In this document: piece after piece, positions 11,002 to 62,551 of the stretch
Layout: every line of letters starts with the position of its first letter
How positions within the stretch are numbered: position 1 is the first letter of the stretch
NCBI GenBank assembly: GCA_951406725.2
Contig: OX597816.1
Coordinates: 137,020,001 to 137,084,000, forward strand
Source of the DNA: Octopus vulgaris
Lineage: Eukaryota
DNA: 64,000 nt
Direction of reading: 5' to 3'
Position numbers and translations under genes: made by a program
Notes under the pieces: model-generated
Database searches by the model: none
What the model saw: only the letters and a program-made list of their open reading frames with translations
What the model was told of the DNA's origin: nothing

Positions 11002-11408
11002 AGTAGCTTGCTTACTAACAACATGGTTCCGGGTTCAGTCCCACTGCGTGGCACCTTGGGCAAGTGTCTTCTACTATAGCCTCGGGCCGATCAAAGCCTT
11101 GTGAGTGGATTTGGTAGACGGAAACTGAAAGAAACTCGTCGTATATATGTATATATGTATATATATATATATGTGTGTGTATATGTTTGTGTGTCTGTGT
11201 TTGTCCCCGCAACATCGCTTGACAACCGATGGTGTTGTGTTTACGTCCCCGTAACTTAGCGGTTCGGCAAAAGAGACCGATAGAGTAAGTACTAGGCTTA
11301 CAAAGAATAAGTCCTGGGATCGATTTGCCCGACTAAAGGCGATGCTCCAGCATGGCCACAGTCAAATGACTGAAACAAGTAAACGAGAGTAAATAGAGTA
11401 AAGAGTAG
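11002..11408 (+). mobile_element. tRNA-derived SINE; the left breakpoint of the tandem duplication lies inside it
   Basis: B-box-like GGGTTCAGTCCC, conserved body, (AAGAGTA)n tail. Confidence 0.85.
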
Positions 11409-12076
11409 AATGAACAAATTAAGTTGCTTCAGAGGGGCTGCTCCGAACAAGGGGCCCTGAAGCTTAAGCTTCATTAGTTTATGGTAGTTTTATGGTTACT
11501 GCCTGACCCACAGATATATTTCCTCTCTACCTACGCTTCTACCGTTATTCCTATGAACTTAACCCGTTAGAACTACCTGGTCATGTACCACTTCCACTCA
11601 GACGATCTCTAGTCTCTCATTAATCCGCATTAACTAAACCAGAACCACTAAATATTGTTTAATATAATGGTTTCACATTTAGGCACAAGATCAATAATTT
11701 TGAGGGGATAGCGATGAGTCGGTTGCATTGACCACAGTATTTATATGGTATTTTATTCTGTCGACCCCGAAAGGATGACAGGCAATAATGATCTTCGTGT
11801 GATTTGAATTCAGAACGTATATAGTCAGAACAAATACTATAAGGAATTTATTCCGATGTTCTAATGGTAATATAACTCGTAAAACATATGTAAATTAGTT
11901 TGTACAAATAGGGTGCGCATTAACATTTGTACAAATAGGTTTTCTATAACATAAGCAGTCTCGGTCGAAATCTCGTCCACTACTTTTATTCATACACCCT
12001 ATTCTCCCTCTAACTAAAAAATGTTTCAATTCCAAATTAAAACTGAACGAAATTGTTTTCTAGGAAATAATTGTGG

Positions 12077-12110
12077 ATTGGAGGAGAGGAAGGTTAGCGA
12101 GCGTATAAAA
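12077..12110 (+). promoter_or_regulatory. Putative core promoter of copy A: inverted CCAAT (12077-12081) and TATAAAA (12104-12110)
   Basis: Canonical motifs ~100 nt upstream of the ATG, both conserved in the diverged copy C although the spacer between them differs. Confidence 0.65.
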
Positions 12111-12211
12111 GGCGCACTAAAGTATACATTGAAATTAAAACGAGCAAGCAGCTACACTTTAAAAATCATAATCCTTTTCATGAAAGAAAAAGTTCATTGA
12201 AACAGAGAGAG

Positions 12212-13699
12212 ATGATATCCAGAACATTTTTTTTCCTTTTCTTAATTATATTAACAGTGAAAAGTGAAAATAATACGTTTGGAAATGTTATGGAAAAGAT
12301 TGTGTCGGAATACAGTAATTCGACGTCAACTGACAACAACTATGCTCCGTGGTTTTTTGAACAAATGATAAAGCTTCTAAACTGCGGTCCTTTACCGAAA
12401 TTAAACAACAGTCAAATACAATATACTTTGAAATGGGAAGAGGAAAAAATACACCTGCAACAAAAGTGCAACCGCTATTATGAAGCAAGCGTAGAGAATA
12501 CAGCCGATATTATTTGTTGGAATGGTAAATGGATGTATGAAGATAGAAAATGTAAGTTAATAACTTGCCCGATTTTTCCTAAACCTGCAAACAGTTTCAT
12601 GATAAATGTTGCATACACATATAACTCTGTTATTCGCTTTTCCTGTGTTTCTGATTATATTTTGCGAGGAAACAATACAATACGTTGTCAAGAAAATAAA
12701 CAGTGGTCGTCTCTACCACCAATCTGTGAAATTGTTAAATGTCTCCCACCGCATCCACCCAAACATGGCAATGTAAACAATACAAATGAAGTTGAAATTA
12801 ACGAAACAATTCACTACAGTTGCTTAAAACCTTATAATCTGAAAGGTGAATCTGTATTAACTTGTCTTCAAGGCGGTAGCTGGAGCTTTCCGGCACCTGT
12901 CTGCATTTTGAAATGTGTTGTACCTGAAATTGCTGGCAGAGTTGTGACTATTTCTGAAGGTACAATTTTAAAACCAAGAACCTTAATCAATCAAGGAGAG
13001 AAAGTGTTATATTCGTGCAAACGATCCTTCATTCCTGTCGCATTTGGAGTCGTTCAATGCTTTTCAAGTAAATGGTATCCAGACATACTTTGCAGAAAAA
13101 CGTGCAAAATTGAGAAACTACATGGATTAAATTATATTTTGTCACATAATTTTTCAGTTATTGAATATAGCTGTTCAGCAGGAGAAACATTGTTGGGTTA
13201 TTCTAAAAGGACCTGTTTAGAAAATGGAACGTGGAGTGGAAAACTTCCACAGTGTGTAAAGTACTGTCAATTGTTACCCGTGTTTGGCATATACAGCTAC
13301 CGAAATTCAGACACTTTGCAATATCTTCCGTTTGGCAGCACAGTCTTAGAAAATACGAATATTATGTATTCATGTCAACTTCCTTATGTGAAGAGCTCAA
13401 GTAAGAATGTGATGTGTCGTAATGGCATTTTGACCCCCAAACCACGCTGTTCATTTAGAGATATTCAGTTGATAAATTCTGAAGTCAGTTTTACTCATTT
13501 ATCGTCAAACTATTATGTTTGTGAAACAAAATACACTTGCAAATTTTTTGGTTACAGACAGAAACCATGCAGCTATAATAGGTGTCAATATTATGGAAAC
13601 AATCGATGTGTCCAACTAGGCTTTAACAATGCAACATCAGAAATATATATTAGTGCAAATACTACTAATTGTTGTGCTATGCAATGTTATGATGATTAA
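12212..13699 (+). CDS. Secreted six-CCP (sushi/SCR) domain protein with 8-Cys C-terminal domain, copy A (495 aa, single exon)
   Basis: Signal peptide MISRTFFFLFLIILTVKS; six four-Cys modules with the C..P..(Y/F)xC..C..W..PxC pattern (module 6 lacks the Trp); no TM or GPI tail; many N-glycosylation sequons; ATG at 12212 matches the paralog starts. Confidence 0.93.
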   Translation: MISRTFFFLFLIILTVKSENNTFGNVMEKIVSEYSNSTSTDNNYAPWFFEQMIKLLNCGPLPKLNNSQIQYTLKWEEEKIHLQQKCNRYYEASVENTADIICWNGKWMYEDRKCKLITCPIFPKPANSFMINVAYTYNSVIRFSCVSDYILRGNNTIRCQENKQWSSLPPICEIVKCLPPHPPKHGNVNNTNEVEINETIHYSCLKPYNLKGESVLTCLQGGSWSFPAPVCILKCVVPEIAGRVVTISEGTILKPRTLINQGEKVLYSCKRSFIPVAFGVVQCFSSKWYPDILCRKTCKIEKLHGLNYILSHNFSVIEYSCSAGETLLGYSKRTCLENGTWSGKLPQCVKYCQLLPVFGIYSYRNSDTLQYLPFGSTVLENTNIMYSCQLPYVKSSSKNVMCRNGILTPKPRCSFRDIQLINSEVSFTHLSSNYYVCETKYTCKFFGYRQKPCSYNRCQYYGNNRCVQLGFNNATSEIYISANTTNCCAMQCYDD

Positions 13700-14776
13700 T
13701 GTACATAAAATTTATGTTTGTTCTTGCTTGCAATCTTTACATTCAGTTATGACATCGCATAACATTCAGTTATGACAACGTAATGGAAGTCGTTGTACTT
13801 ACGCATATGTGCTTGTTCCTGACATTTATCGTAATATATATAATTGGAAACAGACGTAAAATTTAAACTCGCCTTATAAACCGGCCTTTCAGTCAAAATG
13901 CACACATCAGTAAACTGAGAAGACATTTTTAACAACTTAAAATTGCATTCGTTGTGGCACTCAAGTATCACGGGGATCTTTGATACTAATTTCTATTTAT
14001 CACGTCCCAGGAGGGTATGTTTTCAAGAGAAATTATTTGAACTTGACCGTCAATTCCAAGATCAGTGTAGTATAATTCATATGAGTTTTATATTTGTTAT
14101 TGGCGCTCTCTTTGCCACTTCCCCTCTCTCATTGCTGAGTGCTTTCATGTGTTTACACAAATAGATTGTTATAATATTATTTGGCCCCGTGCCGACAAAA
14201 ATGACGGCTAACTGGGTAATTTTTCAGAGTAACACCTGCACGATTTTCGCAAAGAAAAAAAAAATAACTCGGATTTTTTTGCTTGGAATCAAGTACACTG
14301 TCCTCCTAATATGCTGCAAATCCCTTATTTTGGTTCGAGAATAGTTTGTCTAATAAAATGGAGATTATGATTTTGAAAAAAAAATTCCTTTTCCAGTATT
14401 TGATTTCTTTATTTTTAAAATTTCTTTTGTTTTTATTTAACTTTCCTTCAAAAGATTTTCTGCTTCATGTACTAAACAAGCAAGATTGTGATTGAGAAAA
14501 AAAAATCCAAATTTTAATATTTTGATTTTATTGTTTTCTTCTCTAATTTCGATAGTTTTTTTTTCTTTCTGACTATTGTTTTGGAAACGTCACTCCTTCA
14601 AACAGATTTAAACGTAAAATATTACGGTTATGCGAAAATAGAATTTTTACAAATTCAGCAGCTTCATCGGATTTGGTGTATTTTAAAACATAGCTGGTCA
14701 CAAATACATGAGTGCGCACATGTAATCGTGTGTGTGTACACGAGTGTGTACATACATACATACATACATACATACA

Positions 14777-14812
<36 letters not shown>

Positions 14813-14880
14813 TATGTTTCTATATCCAAATTGAAGGAGTAGAGCAGGTAATATCCTGGCTACATATGTTTCTTATCTAG

Positions 14881-15150
14881 CAGATCCTCTGATATAATAA
14901 TAACGAGGGGGACGCAACTATCTACGCATCTGGCTAATGAGACCTTAATTATATAATGGTTACATTGACGATACGGAATTTCGAGTTAGGTCGCTGAAGA
15001 TAAAATTTGAAACTTTCAAATTTGTTTCTTCCTGCGAGTTAACTTGGGATTCTATATCGACAATGTGACCTTTACCCAATTGAGGTACCTTCACCCTAAT
15101 AAATAGGTAGCTGAGTACCCGTCGTTGAGTAACTATCATAACAGGATCTG
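14881..15150. mobile_element. MITE-like palindromic element (copies at 21368-21636 and ~53388-53610)
   Basis: CAGATCCT...AGGATCTG termini with long imperfect inverted arms. Confidence 0.55.
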
Positions 15151-15561
15151 AAGAAATATATGTAGCTTGGATTTTACACACACACACATATACTCACTCA
15201 GTCGAAGCACTTGATCTTTTTTCACCGTACGACTTCCATCATCCCACTACCAAGTTTGCCATCACCCCATCCTTTCTCATTCAGATGTTGCGACGGAGAA
15301 AGGCACAAACTTCCATTACCCACTACCAAGTTTGCCATCACCCTTTCCTTCCTTATTCATCTATAAACCCCTCCCTTTCTCATTCATATGCTGTGATGGA
15401 GAAATACACATCAGCTTATCGAACCTCGATATGAGAAAAGCCAACAACCTTCGACGGCAACAAATAATTATCGTTCCTGTTGATCCGGAACGTTGTTTTA
15501 ATACCTACCATGGACTGCTCGAAGCTTATAAACTTTCTACATGGATCTCGTGTACACACAA

Positions 15562-15627
<66 letters not shown>

Positions 15628-15849
15628 GCACGCACGCACATATCAAAACAGAAGTGTGGGACAAATTTCTTGATATATTTTATTTTCACACGTTAAAAAT
15701 TGTACATGTAGTATAAACATGAAAAGAAATAACCTCTTAGAAAATTTTTAGACAGAGGATCAAATAATCCAAAATTTACATTTGGTTAAAGCGCTTTGTA
15801 TATAGTTAGTTATTAATCAAGATTCGTATAGATAACTGGGATATATATA

Positions 15850-16505
15850 TCTCTATATTAGAATTCTGAAATGCGAAAAGTTTGTTTGTTTGTTTGTCTG
15901 GTTTTGGCATTGAGAACGGGTTAAAGGCCACTAGATCCCGTCGGATTGACTCCAAAATTTACAGGGACATGTAAAATGAGGTGAGGATGAGAGTGGGCTA
16001 GGTTAGGAATCCCCATCTTAAAAGGTGTCGTTGCTAGGGCCAAAAACGTATTTTGACAAGTCTACTCTCATTCTTTTATGTATCTGTCTTACTCCATCAC
16101 TCACTCTCTTTCCTCCCTTCCTTTCACGTTCTATGTATAACGTCGTTTCACAGCGTCTACCTCCCTTCCCTTCATTTTGTCTTTATAACGTCGTTTCACA
16201 TCGTCCTATATCTCCCCCTCCCGCCTTCGACAGCGCTTTCACACTCTCTCTCTTTACGTCTGTCTGCATTCATAGAGAGAGAATTTTCATCACCACCACC
16301 ACCACACAATCATGAGAACAAATATTATGAATCAGATATTTATTGGGTTAATTTATATATGTGTGTGTGTTCTATATATAAATATGTATATATAATGTAT
16401 ATATACAAAGTGTATATATCTGTATATATATATATATATAATTGGTATACATTTATATATATACCTCACTCTTACCCGCGCGTAGAGCGGGTCACCTTAA
16501 GCTAG
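15850..16505 (+). mobile_element. Non-autonomous Helitron
   Basis: 5' TC, 3' hairpin ACCCGCGCGTAGAGCGGGT followed by CTAG, inserted between A and T. Confidence 0.8.
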
Positions 16506-16519
16506 TATGTATATATTAT

Positions 16520-16891
16520 TTTGTTTCAGTCATTTGACTGTGGCGATGGTGGAGCACCGCCTTTAGTCGAACAAATCGACCCTAGGACTTATTCTTTGTA
16601 GCCCAAGTATTTAATCTATCGGGCTCAAGTGAGCGAACTGCTAAGTTACGGGGATGTAAACACACCAATATCGGTTGTCAAGCGATCTGGGGGACAAACA
16701 CAGATATATGAATACACGCACGGGCACACGCACGACGGGCTTCTTTCAGTTTTCATCTATTAAATCCAGCCACAAGGCTTTGGTTGGTTCGAGGCTGTAG
16801 AAGAAGACACTTGCTCAACGTGCCGCGCAGTGTGACTGAACTTGGAACCATATAGTTGGGAAGCAAGCTTCTTATCACACAGCAACGCCTG

Positions 16892-16959
<68 letters not shown>

Positions 16960-17449
16960 AAACCGAACATACGTACACAAGGCTTGCGTGTGCTGTTGGT
17001 TCGTGAGTCGGCTGCAGTTTAGGTGTAAGAAAATATATTCTCAATGCGGCTGTTGTTAAAAACACCTTTTACTCTTTTACTTGTTTCAGTTTTTTGACTG
17101 CGGCTATGCTGGAGCACCGCCTTTAGTCGAGCAAATCGACCCCAGGACATATTCTTTGTAAGCCTGGTACTTATTCTATCGGTCTCTTTTGCCGAACCGC
17201 TAAGTTCCGGGGACGTAAACACACCAGCATTTTGTTGTCAAGCGATGTTGGGGGTCAGACACACACACACACATACGCACACACACACACAGACATAGAT
17301 ACGACGGTCTTCTTTCAGTTTCCGTCTACCAAACCCACTCACAAGGCTTTGATTAGCTCGAGGCTATAGTAGAAGAGACTTGCTCAAGGTGTCACGCAGT
17401 GGGACTGACGGCTGGTAAGCAAGCTACTTACCACACAGCCGCTCCTGCA
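16520..17449 (-). mobile_element. Two tandem SINE copies (16520-16892, 17066-17449), duplicated at 23048-23941
   Basis: Reverse complement of the 11002-11408 family. Confidence 0.85.
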
Positions 17450-18560
17450 AGTAATTCCCAAGCAAGCAAGATAACACACATCATGTCCCTTCTCGGAGTG
17501 ATAGACATCGATGTTGCGTCATTGTTGTAACTTTTCAATGCCGCGTACCGAACGAGACTTGCTGCAAGCTAAATCGCCGACTATTACTATATGCTAGAAA
17601 CTCGTCGTATATATGTATATATGTATATATATATATGTGTGTGTGTATATGTTTGTGTGTCTGTGTTTGTCCCCGCAACATCGCTTGACAACCGATGGTG
17701 TAGTGTTTACGTCCCCGTAACTTAGCAGTTCGGCAAAAGAGACCGATAGAGTAAGTACTAGGCTTACAAAGAATAAGTCCTGGGATCGATTTGCCCGACT
17801 AAAGGCGGTGCTCTAGCATGGCCACAGTCAAATGACTGAAACAAGTAAACGAGAGTAAATAGAGTAAAGAGTAGAATGAACAAATTAAGTTGCTTCAGAG
17901 GGGCTGCTCCGAACAAGGGGCCCTGAAGCTTAAGCTTCATTAGTTTATGGTAGTTTTATGGTTACTGCCTGACCCACAGATATATTTCCTCTCTACCTAC
18001 GCTTCTACCGTTATTCCTATGAACTTAACCCGTTAGAACTACCTGGTCATGTACCACTTCCACTCAGACGATCTCTAGTCTCTCATTAATCCGCATTAAC
18101 TAAACCAGAACCACTAAATATTGTTTAATATAATGGTTTCTTATTTAGGCACAAGATCAATAATTTTGAGGGGATAGCGATGAGTCGGTTGCATTGACCA
18201 CAGTATTTATATGGTATTTTATTCTGTCGACCCCGAAAGGATGACAGGCAAAAATGATCTTGGCGTGATTTGAATTCAGAACGTATATAGTCAGAACAAA
18301 TACTATAAGGAATTTATTCCGATGTTCTAATGGTAATATAACTCGTAAAACATATGTAAATTAGTTTGTACAAATAGGGTGCGCACTAACATTTGTACAA
18401 ATAGGTTTTCTATAACATAAGCCAGACTATAACGTTAAACAGTCTCGGTCGAAATCTCGTCCACTACTTTTATTCATACACCCTATTCTCCCTCTAACTA
18501 AAAAATGTCTCAATTTCAAATTAAAACTAAACGAAGTTGTTTTCTAGGAAATAATTGTGG

Positions 18561-18594
18561 ATTGGAGGAGAGGAAGGTTAGCGAGCGTATAAAA
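18561..18594 (+). promoter_or_regulatory. Putative core promoter of copy B (ATTGG 18561-18565, TATAAAA 18588-18594)
   Basis: Identical to the copy A motifs. Confidence 0.65.
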
Positions 18595-18693
18595 GGCGCA
18601 CTAAAGTATACATTGAAATTAAAACGAGCAAGCAGCTACACTTTAAAAATCATAATCCTTTTCATGAAAGAAAAAGTTCATTGAAACAGAGAG

Positions 18694-20181
18694 ATGATAT
18701 CCAGAACATTTTTTTTCCTTTTCTTAATTATATTAACAGTGAAAAGTGAAAATAATACGTTTGGAAATGTTATGAAAACGATTGTGTCGGAATACAGTAA
18801 TTCGACGTCAACTGACAACAACTATGCTCCGTGGTTTTTTGAACAAATGATAAAGCTTCTAAACTGCGGTCCTTTACCGAAATTAAACAACAGTCAAATA
18901 CAATATACTTTGAAATGGGAAGAGGAAAAAATACACCTGCAACAAAAGTGCAACCGCTATTATGAAGCAAGCGTAGAGAATACAGCCGATATTATTTGTT
19001 GGAATGGTAAATGGATGTATGAAGATAGAAAATGTAAGTTAATAACTTGCCCGATTTTTCCTAAACCTGCAAACAGTTTCATGATAAATGTTGCATACAC
19101 ATATAACTCTGTTATTCGCTTTTCCTGTGTTTCTGATTATATTTTGCGAGGAAACAATACAATACGTTGTCAAGAAAATAAACAGTGGTCGTCTCTACCA
19201 CCAATCTGTGAAATTGTTAAATGTCTCCCACCGCATCCACCCAAACATGGCAATGTAAACAATACAAATGAAGTTGAAATTAACGAAACAATTCACTACA
19301 GTTGCTTAAAACCTTATAATCTGAAAGGTGAATCTGTATTAACTTGTCTTCAAGGCGGTAGCTGGAGCTTTCCGGCACCTGTCTGCATTTTGAAATGTGT
19401 TGTACCTGAAATTGCTGGCAGAGTTGTGACTATTTCTGAAGGTACAATTTTAAAACCAAGAACCTTAATCAACCAAGGAGAGAAAGTGTTATATTCGTGC
19501 AAACGATCCTTCATTCCTGTCGCATTTGGAGTCGTTCAATGCTTTTCAAGTAAATGGTATCCAGACATACTTTGCAGAAAAACGTGCAAAATTGAGAAAC
19601 TACATGGATTAAATTATATTTTGTCACATAATTTTTCAGTTATTGAATATAGCTGTTCAGCAGGAGAAACATTGTTGGGAGATTCTAAAAGGACCTGTTT
19701 AGAAAATGGAACGTGGAGTGGAAAACTTCCACAGTGTGTAAAGTACTGTCAATTGTTACCCGTGTTTGGCATATACAGCTACCGAAATTCAGACACTTTG
19801 CAATATCTTCCGTTTGGCAGCACAGTCTTAGAAAATACGAATATTATGTATTCATGTCAACTTCCTTATGTGAAGAGCTCAAGTAAGAATGTGATGTGTC
19901 GTAATGGCATTTTGACCCCCAAACCACGCTGTTCATTTAGAGATATTCAGTTGATAAATTCTGAAGTCAGTTTTACTCATTTATCGTCAAACTATTATGT
20001 TTGTGAAACAAAATACACTTGCAAATTTTTTGGTTACAGACAGAAATCATGCAACTATAATAAGTGTCAATATTATGGAAACGCTCGATGTGTCCAACTA
20101 GGCTTTAACAATGCAACATCAGAAATGTATATTAGTGCAAAGACTACTAATTGTTGTGCTATGCAATGTTATGATGATTAA
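18694..20181 (+). CDS. Secreted six-CCP domain protein with 8-Cys C-terminal domain, copy B (495 aa, single exon)
   Basis: Intact ORF; 9 aa differences from copy A. Confidence 0.93.
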   Translation: MISRTFFFLFLIILTVKSENNTFGNVMKTIVSEYSNSTSTDNNYAPWFFEQMIKLLNCGPLPKLNNSQIQYTLKWEEEKIHLQQKCNRYYEASVENTADIICWNGKWMYEDRKCKLITCPIFPKPANSFMINVAYTYNSVIRFSCVSDYILRGNNTIRCQENKQWSSLPPICEIVKCLPPHPPKHGNVNNTNEVEINETIHYSCLKPYNLKGESVLTCLQGGSWSFPAPVCILKCVVPEIAGRVVTISEGTILKPRTLINQGEKVLYSCKRSFIPVAFGVVQCFSSKWYPDILCRKTCKIEKLHGLNYILSHNFSVIEYSCSAGETLLGDSKRTCLENGTWSGKLPQCVKYCQLLPVFGIYSYRNSDTLQYLPFGSTVLENTNIMYSCQLPYVKSSSKNVMCRNGILTPKPRCSFRDIQLINSEVSFTHLSSNYYVCETKYTCKFFGYRQKSCNYNKCQYYGNARCVQLGFNNATSEMYISAKTTNCCAMQCYDD

Positions 20182-21243
20182 TGTACATAAAATTTATGTT
20201 TGTTCTTGCTCGCAATCTTTACATTCAGTTATGACATCGCATAACATTCAGTTATGACAACGTAATGGAAGTCGTTGTACTTACGCATATGTGCTTGTTC
20301 CTGACATTTATCGTAATATATATAATTGGAAACAGACGTAAAATTTAAACTCGCCTTATAAACCGGCCTTTCAGTCAAAATGTACACATCAGTAAACTGA
20401 GAAGACATTTTTAACAACTTAAAATTGCATTCGTTGTGGCACTCAAGTATCACGGGGATCTTTGATACTAATTTCTATTTATCATATCCCAGGATGGTAT
20501 GTTTTCAAGAGAAATTATTTGAACTTGACCGTCAATTCCAAGATCAGTGTAGTATAATTCATATGAGTTTTATATTTGTTATTGGCGCTCTCTTTGCCAC
20601 TTCCCCTCTCTCATTGCTGAGTGCTTTCATGTGTTTACACAAACAGATTATTATAATATTATTTGGCCCCGTGCCGACAAAAATGACGGCTAACTGGGTA
20701 ATTTTTCAGAGTAACACCTGCACGATTATCGCAAAGAAAAAAAAAAAACTCGGATTTTTTTGCTTGGAATCAAGTACACTGTCCTCCTAATATGCTGCAA
20801 ATCCCTTATTTTGGTTCGAGAATAGTTTGTTTAATAAAATGGAGATTATGATTTTGAAAAGAAAAAAATTCCTTTTCCAGTATTTGATTTCTTTATTTTA
20901 AAATTTCTTTTGTTTTTATTTAACTTTCCTTCAAAAGATTTTCTGCTTCATGTACTAAACAAGCAAGATTGTGATTGAGAAATAAAAATCCAAATTTTAA
21001 TATTTTGATTTTATTGTTTCCTTCTCTAATTTTGATAGTTTTTTTTTCTTTCTGACTATTGTTTCGGAAACGTTTCCCAGACTCACTCCTTCAAACAGAT
21101 TTAAACGTAAAATATTACGGTTATGCGAAAATAGAATTTTTACAAATTCAGCAGCTTCATCGGATTTGGTGTATTTTAAAACATAGCTGCTCACAAATAC
21201 ATGCGTGCGCACATGTAATCGTGTGTGTGTGTGCACGAGTGTG

Positions 21244-21305
<62 letters not shown>

Positions 21306-22058
21306 TCTATATCCAAATTGAAGGAGTAGAGCAGGTAGTATCCTGGCTACATATGTTTCTTATCTAGCAGATCCTCTGATATAATAATAACGAGGGGTAC
21401 GCAACTATCTACGCATCGGGCGATGAGACCTTAATTATATAATGGTTATATTGACGATACGGAATTTCGAGTTAGGTCGCTGAAGATAAAATTTGAAACT
21501 TTCAAATTTGTTTCTTCCTGCGAGTTAACTTGGGATTCTATATCGACAATGTGACCTTTACCCAATTAAGGTACCTTCACCCTAATAAATAGGTAGCTGA
21601 GTACCCGTCGTTGAGTAACTATCATAACAGGATCTGAAGAAATATATGTAGCTTGGATTTTACACACACACACACACATATACTCACTCAGTCGAAGCAC
21701 TTGATTTTTTTTCACCGTACGACTTCCATCATCCCACTACCAAGTTTGCCATCACCCCATCCTTTCTCATTCAGATGTTGCGACGGAGAAAGGCACAAAC
21801 TTCCATTACCCACTACCAAGTTTGCCATCACCCTTTCCTTCCTTATTCATCTATAAACCCCTCCCTTTCTCATTCATATGCTGTGATGGAGAAATACACA
21901 TCAGCTTATCGAACCTCGATATGAGAAAAGCCAACAACCTTCGACGGCAACAAATAATTATCGTTCCTGTTGATCCGGAACGTTGTTTTAATACCTACCA
22001 TGGACTGCTCGAAGCTTATAAACTTTCTACATGGATCTCGTGTACACACACACGCACG

Positions 22059-22163
<105 letters not shown>

Positions 22164-22385
22164 GCACGCACGCACATATCAAAACAGAAGTGTGGGAAAA
22201 ATTTCTTGATATATTTTATTTTCACATGTTAAAAATTGTACATGTAGTATAAACATGAAAAGAAATAACTTGTTAGAAAATTTTTAGACAGAGGATCAAA
22301 TAATCCAAAATTTACTTTTGGTTAAAGCGCTTTGTATATAGCTAGTTATTAATCAAGATTCGTATAGATAACTGGGATATATATA

Positions 22386-23033
22386 TCTCTATATTAGAAT
22401 TCTGAAATGCGAAAAGTTTGTTTGTTTGTTTGTCTGGTTTTGGCATTGAGAACGGGTTAAAGGCCACTAGATCCCGTCGGATTGACTCCAAAATTTACAG
22501 GGACATGTAAAATGAGGTGAAGATGCGAATGGGCTAGGTTAGGAATCCCCATCTTAAAAGGTGTCGTTGCTAGGGCCAAAAACGCACTTTGACAAGTCTA
22601 CTCTCATTCTTTTATGTATCTGTCTTACTCCATCACTCACTCTCTTTCCTCCCTTCCTTTCACGTTCTATGTATAACGTCGTTTCACAGCGTCTACCTCC
22701 CTTCCCTTCCCTTCACTTTGTCTTTATAACGTCGTTTCACAGCGTCCTATATCTCCCCATCCCCGCCTTCGACAGCGCTTTCACACTCTCTCTTTACGTC
22801 TGTCTGCATTCATAGAGAGAGAATTTTCATCGCCACCACCACCACACAACCATGAGAACAAATATTATGAATCAGATATTTATTGGGTTAATTTATATAT
22901 GTGTGTGTGTTCTATATATAAATATGTATATATAATGTATATATACAAAGTGTATATATATATATATAATTGGCATACATTTATATATATACCACACTCT
23001 TACCCGCGCGTAGAGCGGGTCACCTTAAGCTAG
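22386..23033 (+). mobile_element. Non-autonomous Helitron (duplicated copy)
   Basis: Same TC...hairpin-CTAG structure as 15850-16505. Confidence 0.8.
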
Positions 23034-23420
23034 TATGTATATATTATTTTGTTTCAGTCATTTGACTGTGGCGATGGTGGAGCACCGCCTTTAGTCGAAC
23101 AAATCGACCCTAGGACTTATTCTTTGTAGCCCAAGTATTTAATCTATTGGGCTCAAGTGAGCGAACTGCTAAGTTACGGGGATGTAAACACACCAATATC
23201 GGTTGTCAAGCGATTTGGGGGACAAACACATATATGACTGCACGCACGGGCACACGCACGACGGGCTTCTTTCAGTTTTTATAAATTAAATCCAGCCACA
23301 AGGCTTTGGTTGGTTCGAGGCTGTAGAAGAAGACACTTGCTCAACGTGCCGCGCAGTGTGACTGAACTTGGAACCATATAGTTGGGAAGCAAGCTTCTTA
23401 TCACACAGCAACGCCTGTAT

Positions 23421-23451
<31 letters not shown>

Positions 23452-24140
23452 AAACCGAACATACGTACACAAGGCTTGCGTGTGCTGTTGGTTCGTGAGT
23501 CGGCTGCAGTTTAGGTGTAAGAAAATATATTCTCAATGCGGCTGTTGTTAAAAACACCTTTTACTCTTTTACTTGTTTCAGTTTTTTGACTGCGGCTATG
23601 CTGGAGCACCGCCTTTAGTCGAGCAAATCGACCCCAGGACATATTCTTTGTAAGCCTGGTACTTATTCTATCGGTCTCTTTTGCCGAACCGCTAAGTTCC
23701 GGGGACGTAAACACACCAGCATTTTGTTGTCAAGCGATGTTGGGGGTCAGACACACACACGCACATACGCACACACACACACAGACATACATACGACGGT
23801 CTTCTTTCAGTTTCCGTCTACCAAACCCACTCAGAAGGCTTTGATCAGCTCGAGGCTATAGTAGAAGAGACTTGCTCAAGGTGCCACGCAGTGGGACTGA
23901 CGGCTGGTAAGCAAGCTACTTACCACACAGCCGCTCCTGCAAGTAATTCCCAAGCAAGCAAGATAACTCACATCATGTCCCTTCTCGGAGTGATAGACAT
24001 CGATGTTGCGTCATTGTTGTAACTTTTCAATGCCGCGTACCGAACGAGACTTGCTGCAAGCTAAATCGCCGACTATTACTATATGCTAAATAGTTTCAGA
24101 ACCATATATTGGCATGTCCAGACGTTTCATGGCATGGTAA

Positions 24141-27697: not shown

Positions 27698-27700
27698 ATA

Positions 27701-27738
<38 letters not shown>

Positions 27739-27739
<1 letters not shown>

Positions 27740-27810
27740 TAGCAGCGATACCCGGCGTTGCCCGGTTACATTCAATTGAAGAATTAGACTTTTCTGTTAT
27801 ATATACATGG

Positions 27811-27856
<46 letters not shown>

Positions 27857-45955: not shown

Positions 45956-46129
45956 TGGCGTGTTTCCTGATTTTGTGAATTTGTTTTCGGCTTGCTTAAC
46001 CAGTTTCCTTTGAGGATGGTGTCTTCAAGCCATGAAGACAGCTTTCCAACAAACGCCAATCTCCTTAGCAACTCGTTTGAAATTGAGTTCCCTACACTGC
46101 CTTCACCACAACTTCAGGAAAGAAGGTAG

Positions 46130-52381: not shown

Positions 52382-53634
52382 TCATCATCATCATCATCAT
52401 CATCATTATTATTATCATCATCATCATTATTATTATTATTATTATTATTATTAATATTATTATTATTGTTATCATTATTATTATTATCATTATTATTTCA
52501 TCACAAAATCAAGGTTTTTAAACACACACACACGGCGCAAAAACCACACACACACATACACACATGTCCCAATTATCTGTACGACTCCTGATTAATAGCT
52601 ATGTACAGAACGCTTCAACCAAATGTAAATTTTGTATTATTTGATCCTTTTTATGAAAAATCTCTAAAAGGACGTTTCTTACGTGTTCCATATGTACAAT
52701 TTTCTGACCCCTTTCATTAAACGAAACGTGTAAAGATAAATAAATGATATCAAGAAAAGGTTGCACGCTCCTGTTTTCGCACAAACATGTGTATGTATGT
52801 ATGTATGTATGTATGTATGTATGTATGTATGTATGTATGTATGTATGTATGTATGTATGTACGTACGTAAAATGTACATTCATTCAAAATGTGACCGCAT
52901 GTGTACCGTTGGCGATTTTTTCCTCCGTCTTCCCTTCTTTGGATCTTTCCTTTTCCTATGTTTCTGACGAAGAGCTCCGCTCGAAACGTTAAACCCTCCT
53001 TCTTTTCTTCTTTCCTGAGCGTCCAATAATACTATACCTGTTCCACGTCTTCGCGTTGTTGTGTTTTCTCTTTGTGGTTTCATGTTTGGATTAACTATGT
53101 AAGTACGTAATGTACGTTCGTACATAAGAGATCCAAGGATATAAAAGTAGGAAGATTGTAAGATTCGAGCAGTCCTTGGTAGGCATAAAACAACGTTCAG
53201 GAACAAGAGCAAAAATAATTTATTGTTGTCGAAGGTTGCTGGCTTTTTTCATATCGAGGTTCGATAAGCTGCAAAAAAATTTTATAGCTCACGCTTAGCA
53301 GCTTCAGTTGGTATGAATGAGAACAATAACCCAAATTGAAGGAGTGGAGCAGGTAAAATCCAGGCTCCATAAATTTCTTAAAACTATCAGATCCTCTGAT
53401 ATAATAATTACTCAACGTGGGGTACCCAGCTACCCACTCGTTAGGTTGAAGATACGTTAGTTGTGTAAAGGTTACATTATCGATAAGGAATCACAATGTA
53501 GCTCGTAGGAAGATATAATTTAAAACTTTAAGATTATAACTTCTGTGACTTAACTCGAAATTCTTTAACGTTAATATAAATAGCTGATTACCTCTCTTTG
53601 AGTAATTATTATACCAGTGCATTTGCTACAATAG

Positions 53635-53689
<55 letters not shown>

Positions 53690-53942
53690 TTAGAGACAGG
53701 TATTCTCCATATAGAAGACACCACGTAATGCTCAAGAGATTTAGCCTTTAGCAGGTAGAGGAGTAAATGTAAGGACAAGCAATTTAAGCAAGTCGATATA
53801 CAAAAACTATTAAATACATTTAATACAAAAAATGTACATATGTTTACATATAAAAAGGTCCGGTTACACAGAATAGAAATGATATCAGGAATTAAAGGGG
53901 TTTCAACCCTTTTAATTCCTGATAACATTTCTATTCTGTGTA

Positions 53943-54265
53943 CGTTGAGGGAACTTGATTACGAAGTTCTTCCTCGCCAAGCTTATTCCTCAGACCTTTC
54001 TCCTACCGACTACCATTTTTTCAAGCACCTTGATGGTTTCCTTCGAGAGAAGGGGTTCAAAAATCAAACCGATGCTGAAAGTGCGTTCAAAGAGTTCATC
54101 AGCTCCAGGACTTCAGATTTTTATGTTTCTGGAATAAACAAACTTGTAACTCGTTGGCAAAAATGTGTTGATTGTAATGGCACTTTCTTTGATGACTAAA
54201 ATTTCCGCATTGTATGTAAATGAATTTCATGTTTGAAAACGTTGCTTACTTTTTACTCAGCCTGA
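53943..54265 (+). mobile_element. Mariner transposase C-terminal fragment
   Basis: AYSSDLSPTDYHFFKHL (YSPDLAPxD motif), GINKLVTRWQKCVDCNG. Confidence 0.85.
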
Positions 54266-54359
54266 CATATCGACTTGTTTAACTTGCTTGTCCTTACATT
54301 TACTCCAATATATATATATCTGTGTGTGTGTGTGTGTGTGTGTATACATACACGCATAC

Positions 54360-54395
<36 letters not shown>

Positions 54396-54925
54396 GTATG
54401 CATGTATGTATGTATATATGTATGTATTTATATATATACATACATTCATACATACATACATACATACATACATACATACATACATACATACATACATACA
54501 TACATACATACATACATACAATGAAAAGTGAGGGTACGATAATTACCTGTTTGCTTGAAAGTGGAGGGAAAACCCTCCAAAATCATGGATTTCTCATTAT
54601 ATGTAAACACGCGCGGAGAATATAGCAAATATATTTCTCCGAAACAGTCCTCCTACTTGTAAGATACATATAGTAAAATACAAATAAGATAGACATTCTG
54701 GTATCAATTAATATCGCTTTGTGGGTTGAGTCATCAGTGAAAGTTCGTCAGCCAGACTTAGAGTACCCTGACTTTCTATTATTATATATTTTGCCTATTT
54801 GAATAATGTTTGCTGGCCGCTTTTTCGTTATTTTTTATAGATAATGATACCTTATTTGAGGATATATATAAATATATAAATATTTTTTTCCTCTGTCTTC
54901 CCTTCTCGGGATCTTTCCTTCTCCT

Positions 54926-54994
54926 TTGTTTCCGACGAAGAGCTCCGCTCGAAACGTTAAACCCTCCTTCCCTTCTTTCCTGAGCGTCAAATAA
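54926..54994 (+). ncRNA. Hammerhead-like motif in a short Penelope-derived repeat (second copy 52958-53029)
   Basis: TTGTTT-CCGACGA-A-GAGC(TCC)GCTC-GAAA-CGTT..AGCG-TC-AAATAA; non-canonical core variant. Confidence 0.5.
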
Positions 54995-55059
54995 TACTTT
55001 AATTGTTCCACGTCCTCGCGTTGCTGTGTTTTTTTCTGTGTTTTCTTGTTTGGACTAAC

Positions 55060-55129
<70 letters not shown>

Positions 55130-56034
55130 TGTATGTACATACAAGCGCGCGCATATATTTGTGAGCGGGTGTGTTTTAAAACGTACCAAATTAGAAGAAA
55201 CTATTGAATTTGTGAGAATTATATTTTTGCATAATCGTAATCACTGACACCTAAATCTAGTTAAAGGAGTGAATCTGGGAAACGTTTTGAAGAAAATGCT
55301 GAAAGCAAAAAACTTACAGAAATAAGGGATGGAGACAATAGAATTAAAATATCAAAATTTGGAATTAATTTTTTTGTTATTTACTCACTCACAATCTTGC
55401 TTGTTTAATTACGTAAAACAGGAAAAAATTTCGAAGAAAAGTCAAATAAAAACAAAACAAATTTGAAAAGTAAAAGAAATCAAATACTACAACAGGAATA
55501 ATTTTTTTTCCAAAATCATAATCACCATTTTATTAAACAAATTGTTAGAAATTACAGGTTTTAGCGAACTAAATAGTATCGAATCGAATCATTTCAATAT
55601 GATTATCACACACACATACATTGGTATTTAACAGTGGAACCCAGGTTTACTAAAACTGATAAAATAGTGCAACAATAATGGGTTAACAAAACCCTTCGAC
55701 TCTTTCTATCCAAAGAGTTCTTGAAACTAATACATGTGCTATATTTTTTCATAGATCTATCTATTTTGAGTACCACCATTAAAACGAATTATTTCACGCC
55801 TCTCGATGTTTTAAATTCTTATGACCTATGTATATATCTCCATTTGCAACGTCCGTTTACGCAAAAATTCTGAAAGGAAAATCACGTAATATTTGCGTTT
55901 TTAGGCATTGGGGAGGCACTTCCCCAGAATTGCATCAACAAAGGCTAGCTATTACATTGTGGCATATATGTATATATAGTGTTGAAAGGAAGAAAATGGA
56001 GAATTAATGAGGACCTGACATCCTCGAATTGATT

Positions 56035-56077
<43 letters not shown>

Positions 56078-57152
56078 AACACACACAAACACACACACAC
56101 ACATGTATGTATGTATGTATGTATGTATGTATGTATATATATATATGTATATATATAACAGACAGCTACATAAATGTATACATATATGCATATATAGATT
56201 ATTTTAATGTGTCATTATGATTATTCTATTATGCAGCCACATGAAAGTACTATGTCTCATGGAACTGTGTCTCACCCCGTTAATAACAAATACAAAATTC
56301 ATCTTATGAATTACACTCCACTAATCTTGGAATTGCCAATGCAAATCCAAATACTTTCTCGTGAAAACGTACTCTCCTTGAGGCATGATAAAAAGAAATT
56401 AGCACCAAAGATCCCCGTAATACTTCAGATCCCCAGCGAACACAATTTTAAATTATTTAGTAATTTCTTCCAATTTACTGATGTGTACATCTGACTGAAA
56501 AGCGGGTGAATGGAATTATGATGATGTATAATCCTTTTTACTGTAGATATGATAAACATAAATCGGGCTCTACACAACACTTCTAACGCTAAAGTATATT
56601 GAATAACTATGTTTTTGCACTACAAAACAAACACAAACATCATGCTACAGCTTCACTAGAGCTGAGCACCCTCACTTTACACAAATATTACATAAACATG
56701 TAATGAAGAGGTCATTGGAAAATAATTCAGAGCCAACAAAACAGTCTACTTAGAAGCAAACATCGAGAGACTGGAATATGTAATAAACTATTGTGTAAAG
56801 GATCGTGGGGATGGTCAGAACAATGCGAAGTAAATGCAAGGCAAATCATAAAAATTAATGCTTCATAGTGATTATTTCATTAGAATACACTATGTTTGAT
56901 GGAAAGCATAAAATAATCCAATACAAGCAGAAGCAGAAACAACGAAGGATAATTTTTTTAAAGATCAAAAAACGTTTAAATTACACGATTGTTTCCAACT
57001 ATTTATACAATGATGTCAGAAAGCTGCAAATATGGGAAACGGCAATGAATTCCATCACGTTGTTTGAAATGGATTTAATGCAAAGGAATACATTTTATTG
57101 CAAGCAAGAACATCTATGTAAATTTAAAATACAATTAGAAAATACTTTGATA

Positions 57153-58637
57153 TTAATCATCAGAACATTCCAAAATACAACAATCAATAATTCTTGCATC
57201 AATATATAATTCTGATGTTGCATTGTTAAAGCCTACATTGACACAATGAAACGAGCCTTCACTTTTACAATCTATCAAAGTACAAGATTGCTGACTGTAA
57301 CCAAAAAAATGGCAAGAATATTTTTTTGTTTCACAAACATAATACTTTTCCGACCTATGGGAAAAAATGACTTGATAATCTATCCGCTGAATACTTCTAA
57401 ACGAACAGCGTGGTTGTGGGGTCAATACGCCATTACTACACATTACAATCTGTGTATACTCAAAACCAGATCGACACGTGTAAGAAATATTCGTGTTTTC
57501 TGGGACTGTGCTGCCAAATGGAAGATATTGCAAAGTGTCTGAATTTCGGTAGCTATATATGTTAGAGTCAGGTATCAATTGACAGTTCTTTACACACCGT
57601 GGAAGTTTTCCACTCCACGTTCCATTTTCTAAACAGGTCCTTTTAGAATCTCCCAACAATGTTTCTCCTGCTGAACAGCTATATTCAATAACTGAAAAAT
57701 TATGTGACAAAATATAATTTAATCCATGTAGTTTCTCAATTTTACACGTTTTTCTGCAAAGTATGTCTGGATACCATTTACTTGAAAAGCATTGAACGAC
57801 TCCAAATGCGACAGGAATGAAGGATCGGTTGCAAGAATATAACACTTTCTCTCCTTGATTGATTAAGGTTCTTGGTTTTAAAATTGTACCTTCAGAAATA
57901 GTCACAACTCTGCCAGCAATTTCAGGTACAACACATTTCAAAATGCAGACAGGTGCCGGAAAGCTCCAGCTACCGCCTTGAAGACAAGTTAATACAGATT
58001 CACCTTTCAGATTATAAGGTTTTAAGCAACTGTAGTGAATTGTTTCGTTAATTTCAACTTCATTTGTATTGTTTACATTGCCATGTTTGGGTGGATGCGG
58101 TGGGAGACATTTAACAATTTCACAGATTGGTGGTAGAGACGACCACTGTTTATTTTCTTGACAACGTATTGTATTGTTTCCTCGCAAAATATAATCAGAA
58201 ACACAGGAAAAGCGAATAACAGAGTTATATGTGTATGCAACATTTATCATGAAACTGTTTGCAGGTTTAGGAAAAATCGGGCAAGTTATTAACTTACATT
58301 TTCTATCTTCATACATCCATTTACCATTCCAACAAATAATATCGGCCATATTCTCTACGCTTGCTTCAAAATAGCGGTTGCACTTTTGTTGCAGGTGTAT
58401 TTTTTCCTCTTCCCATTTCAAAGTATATTGTATTTGACTGTTGTTTAATTTCGGTAAAGGGCCACAGTTTAGGAGCTTTATCATTTGTTCAAAAAACCAC
58501 AGAGAAAAGTTGTTGTCAGTTGACGTCGAATTACTGTATTCCGACACAATCGTTTTCATAACATTTCCAAACGTATTATTTTCACTTTTCACTGTTATTA
58601 TAATTAAGAAAATAATATAAAATGTTCTGGATACCAT
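57153..58637 (-). CDS. Secreted six-CCP domain protein with 8-Cys C-terminal domain, copy C (494 aa, single exon)
   Basis: Intact ORF with signal peptide; all cysteines conserved with A/B; AATAAA at 57094-57099 (minus strand). Confidence 0.93.
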   Translation of the reverse strand: MVSRTFYIIFLIIITVKSENNTFGNVMKTIVSEYSNSTSTDNNFSLWFFEQMIKLLNCGPLPKLNNSQIQYTLKWEEEKIHLQQKCNRYFEASVENMADIICWNGKWMYEDRKCKLITCPIFPKPANSFMINVAYTYNSVIRFSCVSDYILRGNNTIRCQENKQWSSLPPICEIVKCLPPHPPKHGNVNNTNEVEINETIHYSCLKPYNLKGESVLTCLQGGSWSFPAPVCILKCVVPEIAGRVVTISEGTILKPRTLINQGEKVLYSCNRSFIPVAFGVVQCFSSKWYPDILCRKTCKIEKLHGLNYILSHNFSVIEYSCSAGETLLGDSKRTCLENGTWSGKLPRCVKNCQLIPDSNIYSYRNSDTLQYLPFGSTVPENTNISYTCRSGFEYTQIVMCSNGVLTPQPRCSFRSIQRIDYQVIFSHRSEKYYVCETKKYSCHFFGYSQQSCTLIDCKSEGSFHCVNVGFNNATSELYIDARIIDCCILECSDD

Positions 58638-58737
58638 TCTCTAAGTTTTGCTGAACTTTTTCTTTCATGAAAAGGACTATGATTTTTAAAGTGTAGCTGC
58701 TTGCTCGTTTTAATTTCAATGTGTTTTTTAGTGCACC

Positions 58738-58778
58738 TTTTATACGCTCGCTAGGCGTATCAAATCATGTTCTCCAAT
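58738..58778 (-). promoter_or_regulatory. Putative core promoter of copy C (TATAAAA 58738-58744; CCAAT 58774-58778)
   Basis: TAGCGAGCGTATAAAAGG and TTGTGGATTGGAG conserved with copies A and B. Confidence 0.65.
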
Positions 58779-58789
58779 CCACAATAAAG

Positions 58790-58980: not shown

Positions 58981-59063
58981 GGTCCCGGGTTGATTCGGGG
59001 TTAACCACAGTAAATAAGGTACTCAATACATAGCAGAGTAAAATTAATTTATTATATAGAAGG

Positions 59064-59114
59064 AGCTTCTACAGGACTAGAACTGTTTCATTCAAGAGAA
59101 ATCTTCAGGAAGCT
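59064..59114 (-). ncRNA. Type I hammerhead ribozyme motif (left arm)
   Basis: AGCTTC-CTGAAGA-TTTCTCTTGAAT-GAAA-CAG(TTCTAGTC)CTG-TA-GAAGCT. Confidence 0.7.
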
Positions 59115-59407
59115 AGTTAACAAGAATTGTATTGGCATTTATACATTTAGGCAGGTTTATAGGGGTGGTGGTGGGGGACTTTTTGGGGGTAGGCATAGCG
59201 CAAAAAAATCATACTTGGGGGAGTGGTCAAGGAGTCAGTGGTAAATTAGAAGAGTAAATAAAAGAATAAAAAAAGAATAAAAAAATAATAAAAAAATATA
59301 AAATTATATAGAAGAATAGAATTTTAGGTAAATAAGGAAATTCTCAACACACACCCATATATATATATATATATACATACACACACACACATATACATAC
59401 ATATATC

Positions 59408-59455
<48 letters not shown>

Positions 59456-59665
59456 CATACATACACATATACATGCATATACATATACACACACACATGT
59501 ATATATACACACACACGACCACACATACACATACACACAAAAAAATATATACATACACACACATACACATACTCACATACACACACATATCCACATACAC
59601 ACATGCACACACAACACACAAGTCCCTATATACTCATATATACATATACACATACATGTATGCAT

Positions 59666-59728
<63 letters not shown>

Positions 59729-60268
59729 CATATGTGTACCCATTCATACACATATATGTATGTATACACACACACACACACATACATATATATACACATA
59801 CATACATACATATGTGTACCTATTCATACCTACACATACACACATATATACATACAATTACAAACCCATTCCCTAATTTTAATTTTATTATCTTCATTTA
59901 TTACTTTTGTTATCTTTGACCGCTGGTCACAAACATCTTGGCTAGTCCCTTTTATCTTTCTACTTGAGCACAAGCACTCACTCACGCACGCACACTCATT
60001 AGCACGCACACACACTCTCATTCGTACACTCATACACATACACGCACGCACGCGTTATATTCATACATACATACATCTACATACATACACGTATATACAC
60101 ATACATACGCGTACCTACAGATTCATGTCTACAATCTTAGAAGACTAGTCTATACATATACACCAAATATATATACACACATACATATACACCTACATAC
60201 AAATACATACATACATATATATACACACATATATATATATACATAAACATATACACATACACATATAA

Positions 60269-60299
<31 letters not shown>

Positions 60300-60486
60300 C
60301 ACATATATACATATATATACATATACATATATATATACACACATCCGCATACATACATACATACATACATACATACACCCATACATACATACATATATAC
60401 ACACATACACACACCCACACGTATACATATACATACATATACGCGCATGCATACACATACAAATACATACACATACACATATACAT

Positions 60487-60525
<39 letters not shown>

Positions 60526-60635
60526 CATACACATACATACATACATATACATATATACACACACACATACATACACATATACACATACACGCACATACAC
60601 ATATACATGCATATACATACATATATATATGTATG

Positions 60636-60695
<60 letters not shown>

Positions 60696-60869
60696 CATAC
60701 ACACATACACATACACACATACACATATGTACACATACACACACATATTCACATATATATATATCTATATATATATATATATATATATATATAGATATAG
60801 ATATATATATATGTGAATATGTGTGTGTATGTGTACATATGTGTATGTGTGTATGTGTATGTGTGTATG

Positions 60870-60910
<41 letters not shown>

Positions 60911-61211
60911 ATGCATGTATATGTGTATGTGCGTGTATGTGTATATGTGTATGTATGTGTGTGTGTATATATGTATATGTATGTATGTATGTGTATGTAT
61001 GTGTATATATATATATGTATGTATGTATATGTATATGTGTATGTGTATGTATTTGTATGTGTATGCATGCGCGTATATGTATGTATATGTATACGTGTGG
61101 GTGTGTATATGTGTGTATATATGTATGTATGTATGGGTGTATGTATGTATGTATGTATGTATGCGGATGTGTGTATATATATATGTATATGTATATATAT
61201 GTATATATGTG

Positions 61212-61244
<33 letters not shown>

Positions 61245-61783
61245 GTGTATGTGTATATGTGTATGTATATATATATATGTGTGTATATATATGTATGTAT
61301 GTATTTGTATGTAGGTGTATATGTATGTGTGTATATATATTTGGTGTATATGTATAGACTAGTCTTCTAAGATTGTAGACATGAATCTGTAGGTACGCGT
61401 ATGTATGTGTATATACGTGTATGTATGTAGATGTATGTATGTATGAATATAACGCGTGCGTGCGTGTATGTGTATGAGTGTACGAATGAGAGTGTGAGGT
61501 GCGTGCTAATGAGTGTGCGTGCGTGAGTGAGTGCTTGTGCTCAAGTAGAAAGATAAAAGGGACTAGCCAAGATGTTTGTGACCAGCGGTCAAAGATGACA
61601 AAAGTAATAAATGAAGATAATAAAATTAAAATTAGGGAATGGGTTTGTAATTGTATGTATATATGTGTGTATGTGTAGGTATGAATAGGTACACATATGT
61701 ATGTATGTATGTGTTTATATATATGTATGTGTGTGTGTGTGTGTGTATACATACATATATGTGTATGAATGGGTACACATATG

Positions 61784-61842
<59 letters not shown>

Positions 61843-62052
61843 ATGCATACATGTATGTGTATATGTATATATGAGTATATAGGGACTTGTGTGTTGTGTG
61901 TGCATGTGTGTATGTGGATATGTGTGTGTATGTGAGTATGTGTATGTGTGTGTATGTATATATTTTTTTGTGTGTATGTGTATGTGTGGTCGTGTGTGTG
62001 TATATATACATGTGTGTGTGTATATGTATATGCATGTATATGTGTATGTATG

Positions 62053-62083
<31 letters not shown>

Positions 62084-62116
62084 ATGTAGATATATGTATG
62101 TATATGTGTGTGTGTG

Positions 62117-62161
<45 letters not shown>

Positions 62162-62433
62162 GTGTGTGTGTATGTATGTGTGTATGTATATGTGTGTGTG
62201 TTGAGAATTTCCTTATTTACCTAAAATTCTATTCTTCTATATAATTTTATATTTTTTTATTATTTTTTTAATTCTTTTTTTATTCTTTTATTTACTCTTC
62301 TAATTTACCACTGACTCCTTGACCACTCCCCAAGTATGATTTTTTTGCGCTATGCCTACCCCCAAAAAGTCCCCCACCACCACCCCTATAAACCTGCCTA
62401 AATGTATAAATGCCAATACAATTCTTGTTAACT

Positions 62434-62484
62434 AGCTTCCTGAAGATTTCTCTTGAATGAAACAGTTCTAGTCCTGTAGAAGCT
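62434..62484 (+). ncRNA. Type I hammerhead ribozyme motif (right arm)
   Basis: Same sequence as 59064-59114; stems I and III pair perfectly; GUA cleavage triplet. Confidence 0.7.
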
Positions 62485-62499
62485 CCTTCTATATAATAA

Positions 62500-62551
<52 letters not shown>

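Follow-up and report, generated by a model that had tools for sequence, protein, structure and literature searches.

Gene C, one of three paralogous Sushi-module genes identified in this region of the Octopus vulgaris genome, has probably acquired the middle of its coding sequence from an A-type paralog by gene conversion. The window, that is, the whole 64,000-nt stretch of DNA that was scanned, contains three uninterrupted ORFs of ~495 codons, with A and B on the forward strand and C on the reverse strand (Table 1). Interlocus gene conversion between old paralogs, as put forward in the original prediction, is well supported by a contrast at silent sites (P = 1.6e-8) and by a double switch of ancestry within C. 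The account as a whole, namely an old inverted duplication and a later non-reciprocal replacement of the middle of C from an A-type gene, is considered likely.

Table 1. Positions within the window of the three paralogous genes, their duplications and the segments of gene C (dN and dS are for C against A)
Feature	Position	Strand	Remarks
Gene A	12212..13699	+	495 aa; matching tract 12503-13249; candidate donor
Gene B	18694..20181	+	495 aa; matching tract 18985-19731; candidate donor
Gene C	57153..58637	-	Uninterrupted 494-aa ORF; putative converted copy
Layout of gene C	57153..58637	-	Putative signal peptide, N-terminal helices, six CCP (Sushi) modules, C-terminal Cys-rich domain
Young tandem duplication of ~6.5 kb holding A and B	11130..24088	+	95 mismatches in ~6,400 aligned bases (1.5%)
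3' flank of C	52567..57112	-	Collinear blocks 69-84% identical to the 3' flank of A; old inverted duplication
Promoter-proximal region and codons 1-97 of C	58347..58785	-	TATA-like site near 58744; 5-10% from A/B
Full conversion tract (putative)	57600..58346	-	Codons 98-346, CCP1 end through CCP5; may reach 5' to 58460
512-bp run identical to A	57835..58346	-	Codons 98-268
CCP5 end and CCP6 of C, apparently unconverted	57402..57599	-	CCP6 dS 0.43, dN 0.22
C-terminal Cys-rich domain of C, apparently unconverted	57153..57401	-	dN 0.34, dS 0.24

The window consists of AT-rich animal DNA with many microsatellites and transposon fragments, and a tblastn search found no fourth copy of the gene in it. 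C and A/B are old paralogs, as seen from their diverged 3' flanks, which are linked by six collinear blocks over ~4.5 kb in inverted orientation (69-84% identity); these non-coding flanks are 16-31% diverged between C and A. Upstream of the ATG, ~140 bp with a TATA-like site (12070-12240, 18554-18720 and 58785-58620) are identical between A and B and 90% identical in C, and are better conserved than the 3' flank. The upstream homology of C to A/B stops abruptly at 58785, beside a dispersed repeat. A palindrome of ~3.5 kb (59043-62505), with an AT microsatellite at its centre, no spacer and arms ~99% identical in their unique parts, is located 260 bp upstream of this promoter homology and could be a product of very recent fold-back duplication or of faulty assembly. 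The DNA separating B from C also contains transposon remains (25705-30474 and 44233-48849), among them fragments of a reverse transcriptase, an endonuclease, a PIF1-like helicase and DUF4371.

The 512-bp run of C was confirmed to match A base for base, its reverse complement being found exactly once on the forward strand (12503-13014), and to extend from the end of CCP1 to the middle of CCP4, as had been claimed. Likewise, B (18985-19496) differs from it at a single silent position, in codon 260 (AAT/AAC). Chance is excluded, as shuffling the 1,785 aligned sites 10,000 times never gave an identical run longer than 130 bp (mean of the longest runs 49). The length of 512 bp was rejected as meaningful in itself, since the run is part of a longer near-identical tract (58346-57600) in which it is weakly unusual (P = 0.019 against A, 0.072 against B). 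Across the 747 bp of this tract C shows five differences from A and four from B (dS ~0.02), including changes private to C at 57834, 57828 and 57744. Zero change at the 108 silent sites of the run would be expected in 13-20% of cases at the tract's own dS or at the divergence of the A/B flanks. The sharp jump in divergence noted near codon 347 was located at 57598, which is also the maximum-likelihood change point; the corresponding 5' change point is 58460.

Silent sites separate this tract from the remainder of the gene. Between C and A they differ at 3/158 sites in codons 98-346 (95% interval 0.4-5.4%) and at 22/87 in the tip (P = 1.6e-8), with codons 1-97 intermediate (~4/54); for four-fold sites the values are 2/94 in the tract and 6/30 in the tip. 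Comparison by region, as had been proposed, gives a dS of ~0.02 for the tract against 0.31 for the tip, and the latter fits the old duplication of the flanks, so the tip would simply be unconverted. The argument that purifying selection on the protein cannot hold silent sites also stands, the probability of no change at 108 sites being ~1e-14 at the tip rate. Of the regions originally described as much more diverged, the tip (103/444 bases differing) and the 3' flanks (75-84% identity) agree with that description, whereas the 5' part is moderately diverged (17/291 bases in codons 1-97, dS ~0.08). Runs of 90-91 bp identical to A/B occur within this 5' part (58347..58785) and may be older or shorter tracts. 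Confinement of conversion to a stalk was therefore too strong a claim, as the tract exceeds 512 bp and the 5' region appears partly homogenised; furthermore, "stalk" is a metaphor, a C-terminal hydrophobic anchor being absent.

A family alignment of 20 proteins, including A, B and C, shows a change of nearest relative along C. Over the first 97 residues the nearest protein is O. sinensis P0015 (93%); the middle agrees with A/B at 99-100%, and for the tip no aligned protein exceeds 61% identity. Nineteen residues are private to A-type proteins when compared with ten other paralogs; C has all five of those at positions 112-293 and none of the 14 elsewhere. Comparison of the 120 pairs among the 16 full-length rows (four partial rows were dropped) identified 31 pairs with a tip identity of 55-79%. 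The middles of 27 of these are 85-95% identical, and values of 98-99.6% occur only in the four pairs of C with A-type genes. In segment trees of 14 rows, with the four partial and two Argonauta rows left out, the N-terminus of C falls with P0015/P0003 (84/92) and its middle with A-type proteins (100/99). Grouping of C with P0015 is rejected for the middle (p-AU 0.005), while a clade of C with A-type proteins stays unrejected for the N-terminus (p-AU 0.07) and the tip (0.26). These p values are optimistic, as the groups were named after the trees had been seen and the 24 groupings checked were left uncorrected, and the rejections concerning N-termini are marginal (0.03-0.04). Private residues and segment trees together show an ancestry switch at both ends of the tract, and this double switch probably reflects gene conversion from A/B into C.

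Transfer from an A-type gene into C is the simplest reading of the direction, because the two ends of C are not A-type. A and B lack a C-type middle. A search for an ortholog of the C-type tip gave three matches among 20 candidates of near length (best 56-58%) and none among two shorter proteins; no database protein with a C-type tip was found. With regard to date, nine sites were identified at which A and B carry one residue and the two A-type genes of O. sinensis do not. C follows A/B at 3/3 of these inside the tract and at 3/6 outside, two of the three residues shared outside being common in the family, and F284 and S286 are the only informative ones among the nine. Of the 20 rows, only A, B and C have the motif F284-S285-S286; the 17 others, including the O. 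sinensis A-type genes, lack it. Judged by these two residues, the exchange between C and an A-type gene is probably later than the split from O. sinensis, for which bioRxiv 2023.05.16.540928 gives 2.5 million years between O. vulgaris and O. sinensis, with O. bimaculoides at 34 million years. The event appears to date from around the time of the A/B duplication or later; A and B are ~1.5% apart, similar to the dS of the tract (~0.02).

A sequence of events can be proposed from these observations. C arose by an old inverted duplication of the A/B gene unit (collinear 3' flanks 75-84%, tip dS 0.31), and much later ~750-860 bp of its coding middle was probably overwritten, without reciprocal transfer, by sequence of an A-type gene that lies 38-45 kb from it. 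Purifying selection may hold CCP2-5 at ~85-91% identity between paralogs, which would be enough for strand invasion. Conversion requires close homology, so fast divergence alone would stop tracts at CCP6; CCP6 and the terminal domain presumably diverge too fast to be entered. Conversion would then reset the middle and sharpen its contrast with the tip. At protein level, other pairs of paralogs from O. sinensis and O. bimaculoides seem to have exchanged sequence in a similar way. Recurrent conversion, as originally proposed, is unneeded for C, a single tract of ~750-860 bp being enough, and receives moderate support across the family as a whole.

That family-wide support comes from the pairing of segments and from the 90-bp identical runs in the 5' part of C. 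N-termini pair across species, O. bimaculoides P0002 with O. sinensis P0014 (85/89) and P0003 with P0015 and C (84/92), whereas middles pair within species, P0002 with P0003 (99/98), P0014 with P0015 (66/90) and A with B and C (88/84). This suggests repeated exchange favouring the middle across the family, with moderate support and with the other species compared as proteins only. Alternative pairings are rejected for the middle (0.003) and marginally for the N-terminus (0.03-0.04). The older orthologs P0007 and P0018 group across species by their middle. A-type tips group by ortholog (99/100), and the tips of P0002, P0003, P0014, P0015 and C form no resolved grouping. Of the expected pattern, stalks grouping by species and tips by ortholog, the first is seen in some middles and the second only in A-type tips, the N-termini being the segments that pair across species instead. 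Among O. sinensis paralogs, L285 is common to P0001 and P0011, and K187 to P0001, P0012 and P0014, across subfamilies; short conversion tracts are a possible origin of these odd residues. P0002 and P0014, from two species, have an extra cysteine at residue 41 in the N-terminal helical region, which could form an interchain disulfide. P0011 lacks ~100 residues (CCP2 and most of CCP3), P0014 terminates in an apparent frameshift, and P0008 and P0020 resemble fused gene models.

Continual conversion between A/B and C, in which each tip binds a ligand of its own and selection therefore eliminates tracts that enter it, is a possible, if somewhat unlikely, alternative to a single late replacement. 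It would account for a 3' break at codon 347, which is the CCP5/CCP6 junction, and for the layered identity of C to A/B (0%, ~1-2%, ~6% and ~25% differing). Selection on the tip is also suggested by a dN above dS in the terminal domain between C and A (0.34 vs 0.24), by seven replacement and no silent differences there between A and B, and by a rate of A/B replacement in the tip that exceeds that of codons 1-346 (P = 0.011). However, the A/B excess of replacement over silent differences is not significant (P = 0.35), and the 512-bp run carries no clear sign of being younger than the rest of the tract (P = 0.019 and 0.072). The tip is fastest even in the one-to-one orthologs P0007/P0018 (middle 95%, tip 78%), and in all 27 other pairs with a similar tip identity it diverges 2.2-4.6 times faster than the middle, so that a passive barrier of divergence is enough to explain the break. 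Nor does the break appear fixed, as P0002 and P0003 have residues in common into CCP6 (K370, T379). Selection against tracts entering the tip is possible. At five codons within codons 453-484 of gene A (13565-13665), B agrees with the O. sinensis genes and A differs, which suggests a burst of change in the terminal domain of A. An explanation without any exchange, in which C is a recent duplicate or its middle is under extreme purifying selection beside a very fast tip, draws on the middle being the most conserved part across the family. It is scarcely plausible given that silent sites show the same pattern (108 unchanged, ~1e-14 at the tip rate), that the non-coding 3' flanks are 16-31% diverged and that the N-terminus of C has a different nearest relative.

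A chimeric origin of C through two successive unequal crossovers, or a flow of sequence from C into the A-type lineage, is regarded as improbable. One conversion and a double crossover are inseparable from sequence alone; a single crossover between inverted copies inverts the intervening DNA, and as C is inverted relative to A/B it would have inverted the 38-45 kb between them. F284 is also found in P0014/P0015, relatives of the C N-terminus, and may have moved from C to A/B, but all five private residues are already present in the A-type genes of O. sinensis, which places the origin of most of the tract sequence, on the A side, before the split. Quite improbable is an assembly or polishing artefact in which reads of A and B overwrote the middle of C. 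Short reads would map ambiguously here, 363 of the 1,663 150-mers of the C region being exact in A or B, and the neighbouring palindrome (59043-62505) is itself perhaps a fold-back artefact. Against this, all three copies keep private changes in the tract (three in C, two in A and one in B), and similar, weaker mosaics occur in separately assembled species. It can also be reasoned that reads of a ~10% diverged paralog would not out-map those of C, that long reads, had they overwritten C, would have reached at least one end of a 1.8-kb homology, and that a mis-join yields one switch where C shows two. Polishing could plausibly, on the same reasoning, perfect a 99% tract and not create one from ~90%; it could have erased a few differences and so made the 512-bp run look perfect.

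Eleven relatives were identified at E up to 1e-20, ten of which carry a species name and come from Octopus sinensis, O. bimaculoides or Argonauta hians. None of the three exact sequences of A, B and C was present in the protein collection. A and B are, by segment, 93-99% identical to O. sinensis XP_029633620.1 and XP_029634395.1, and these proteins, together with XP_029657166.1, XP_014781787.1 and other family members, are 44-84% identical to C. Among the best 150 matches of a profile search of 1.84 billion representatives, long multi-CCP proteins dominate and no further family member was found. The octopus relatives are labelled "complement factor H-like", "P-selectin-like" and "SVEP1-like" in databases, and these automatic labels, derived from CCP similarity, were rejected as functions. 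PF00084 matches three stretches per protein (Pfam, E ~1e-30), and tandem four-cysteine CCP modules are present. The predicted model has a mean pLDDT of 69.7, and fold searches with it support CCPs at residues 57-233 and 294-414; CCP4, where pLDDT is below 50, was assigned from cysteine spacing. Factor H consists of twenty CCP modules and nothing else, whereas these proteins combine six modules with N-terminal helices and a non-CCP terminal domain. Selectins have lectin and EGF domains and a transmembrane segment, whereas only PF00084 was found here and the 19-residue hydropathy of the last 40 residues is at most 0.8. A membrane-anchored stalk was likewise rejected, these 40 residues having no hydrophobic anchor.

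At the N-terminus, a short hydrophobic stretch looks like a cleavable signal peptide, and 9-12 N-glycosylation sequons were identified. The C-terminal Cys-rich domain (57153-57401 on the reverse strand; 13451-13699 and 19933-20181 on the forward strand) is possibly a shortened SRCR domain without its helix. In the full model residues 414-494 have no helix and align over 75-77 residues to 1o5e_L, 3t2n_A, 7wqx_A and 8ziw_A (Z 6.7-7.0, rmsd 2.7-2.9), chains of hepsin and enteropeptidase, although a Z below 8 may mean just a common arrangement. The aligned parts of these chains are presumably SRCR domains. Pfam SRCR profiles matched none of ten terminal domains at E up to 1, other Pfam matches being sub-threshold and unrelated. 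A profile of the domain gave one match among PDB sequences (E 0.71), and an Atlas search gave Sushi-like leads under 0.9 and no usable match. Folded alone, the domain is uninformative (pLDDT 50.5, best Z 2.3), and a homodimer prediction for residues 19-116 scored 0.02, which speaks neither for nor against. According to the supplement of PMC10138644, a single spectrum from O. vulgaris skin mucus was assigned to the peptide VVTISEGTILKPR, which corresponds to residues 244-256 within the tract and is common to 12 database entries, including P0001, P0012 and P0015. The products are probably secreted and glycosylated, with a conserved string of CCPs carrying a variable binding end, and a role in mucus or immune recognition is likely. 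A broader scenario is doubtful as a whole: germline diversification, in octopods, of a secreted mucus recognition family in which a conversion-uniform CCP2-5 scaffold is accompanied by N-termini recombined with positively selected SRCR-like tips, tracts entering the tip are purged, and C is a fresh three-part mosaic.

In the literature searched, which covers few subscription papers, no account of the evolution of this octopod family was found, and six accessions are named in none of the papers. The "svep1" markers in the available portions of PMC9712504 and bioRxiv 2022.06.11.495763 have no established tie to the octopod Sushi family, PMC13252362 mentions Sushi, in the portion available, solely for an unrelated 1052-aa protein, and the accessible text of PMC10855680 contains nothing on this family. 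The mechanism, textbook gene conversion, is known; the example is new, a clean conversion tract with defined ends, in a family of cephalopod genes to which databases give the wrong names. The diversification of cephalopod recognition proteins is little known, and a homogenised scaffold with a fast-changing end is a direct candidate for it. The tract singles out the terminal domain as a candidate for ligand specificity. In this Sushi family, whole-gene trees, short-read mapping and peptide assignment will mislead.

CFH genes are multi-exon, whereas the octopus ORFs are uninterrupted and are not CFH orthologs. Like these octopus genes, those of the human CFH/CFHR cluster encode secreted proteins built of CCP modules, and sequence passes between them through gene conversion and non-allelic recombination; the events cited in PMC6052053 are rare disease variants at the C-terminal end, which the octopus tract leaves out. 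In the clustered protocadherins of vertebrates, which are also tandem paralogs with domain-wise conversion seen by per-domain dS, conversion lowers dS in some ectodomains and spares the specificity domains EC2-EC3 (PMC4978886, available text). Protocadherins are adhesion receptors of the membrane whose paralogs are numerous and whose binding interfaces are known (same text); the octopus family, in contrast, is small, its CCP proteins are apparently secreted, the variable end is C-terminal and the ligand is yet to be named. GOT1p1/GOT1p2 of the copepod Tigriopus californicus are a further case among invertebrates, in which islands of divergence persist between paralogs that undergo conversion and new mosaic proteins have formed; unlike the octopus family, GOT1 is a metabolic enzyme with population data and no layout of constant and variable domains (PMC3728101, available text).
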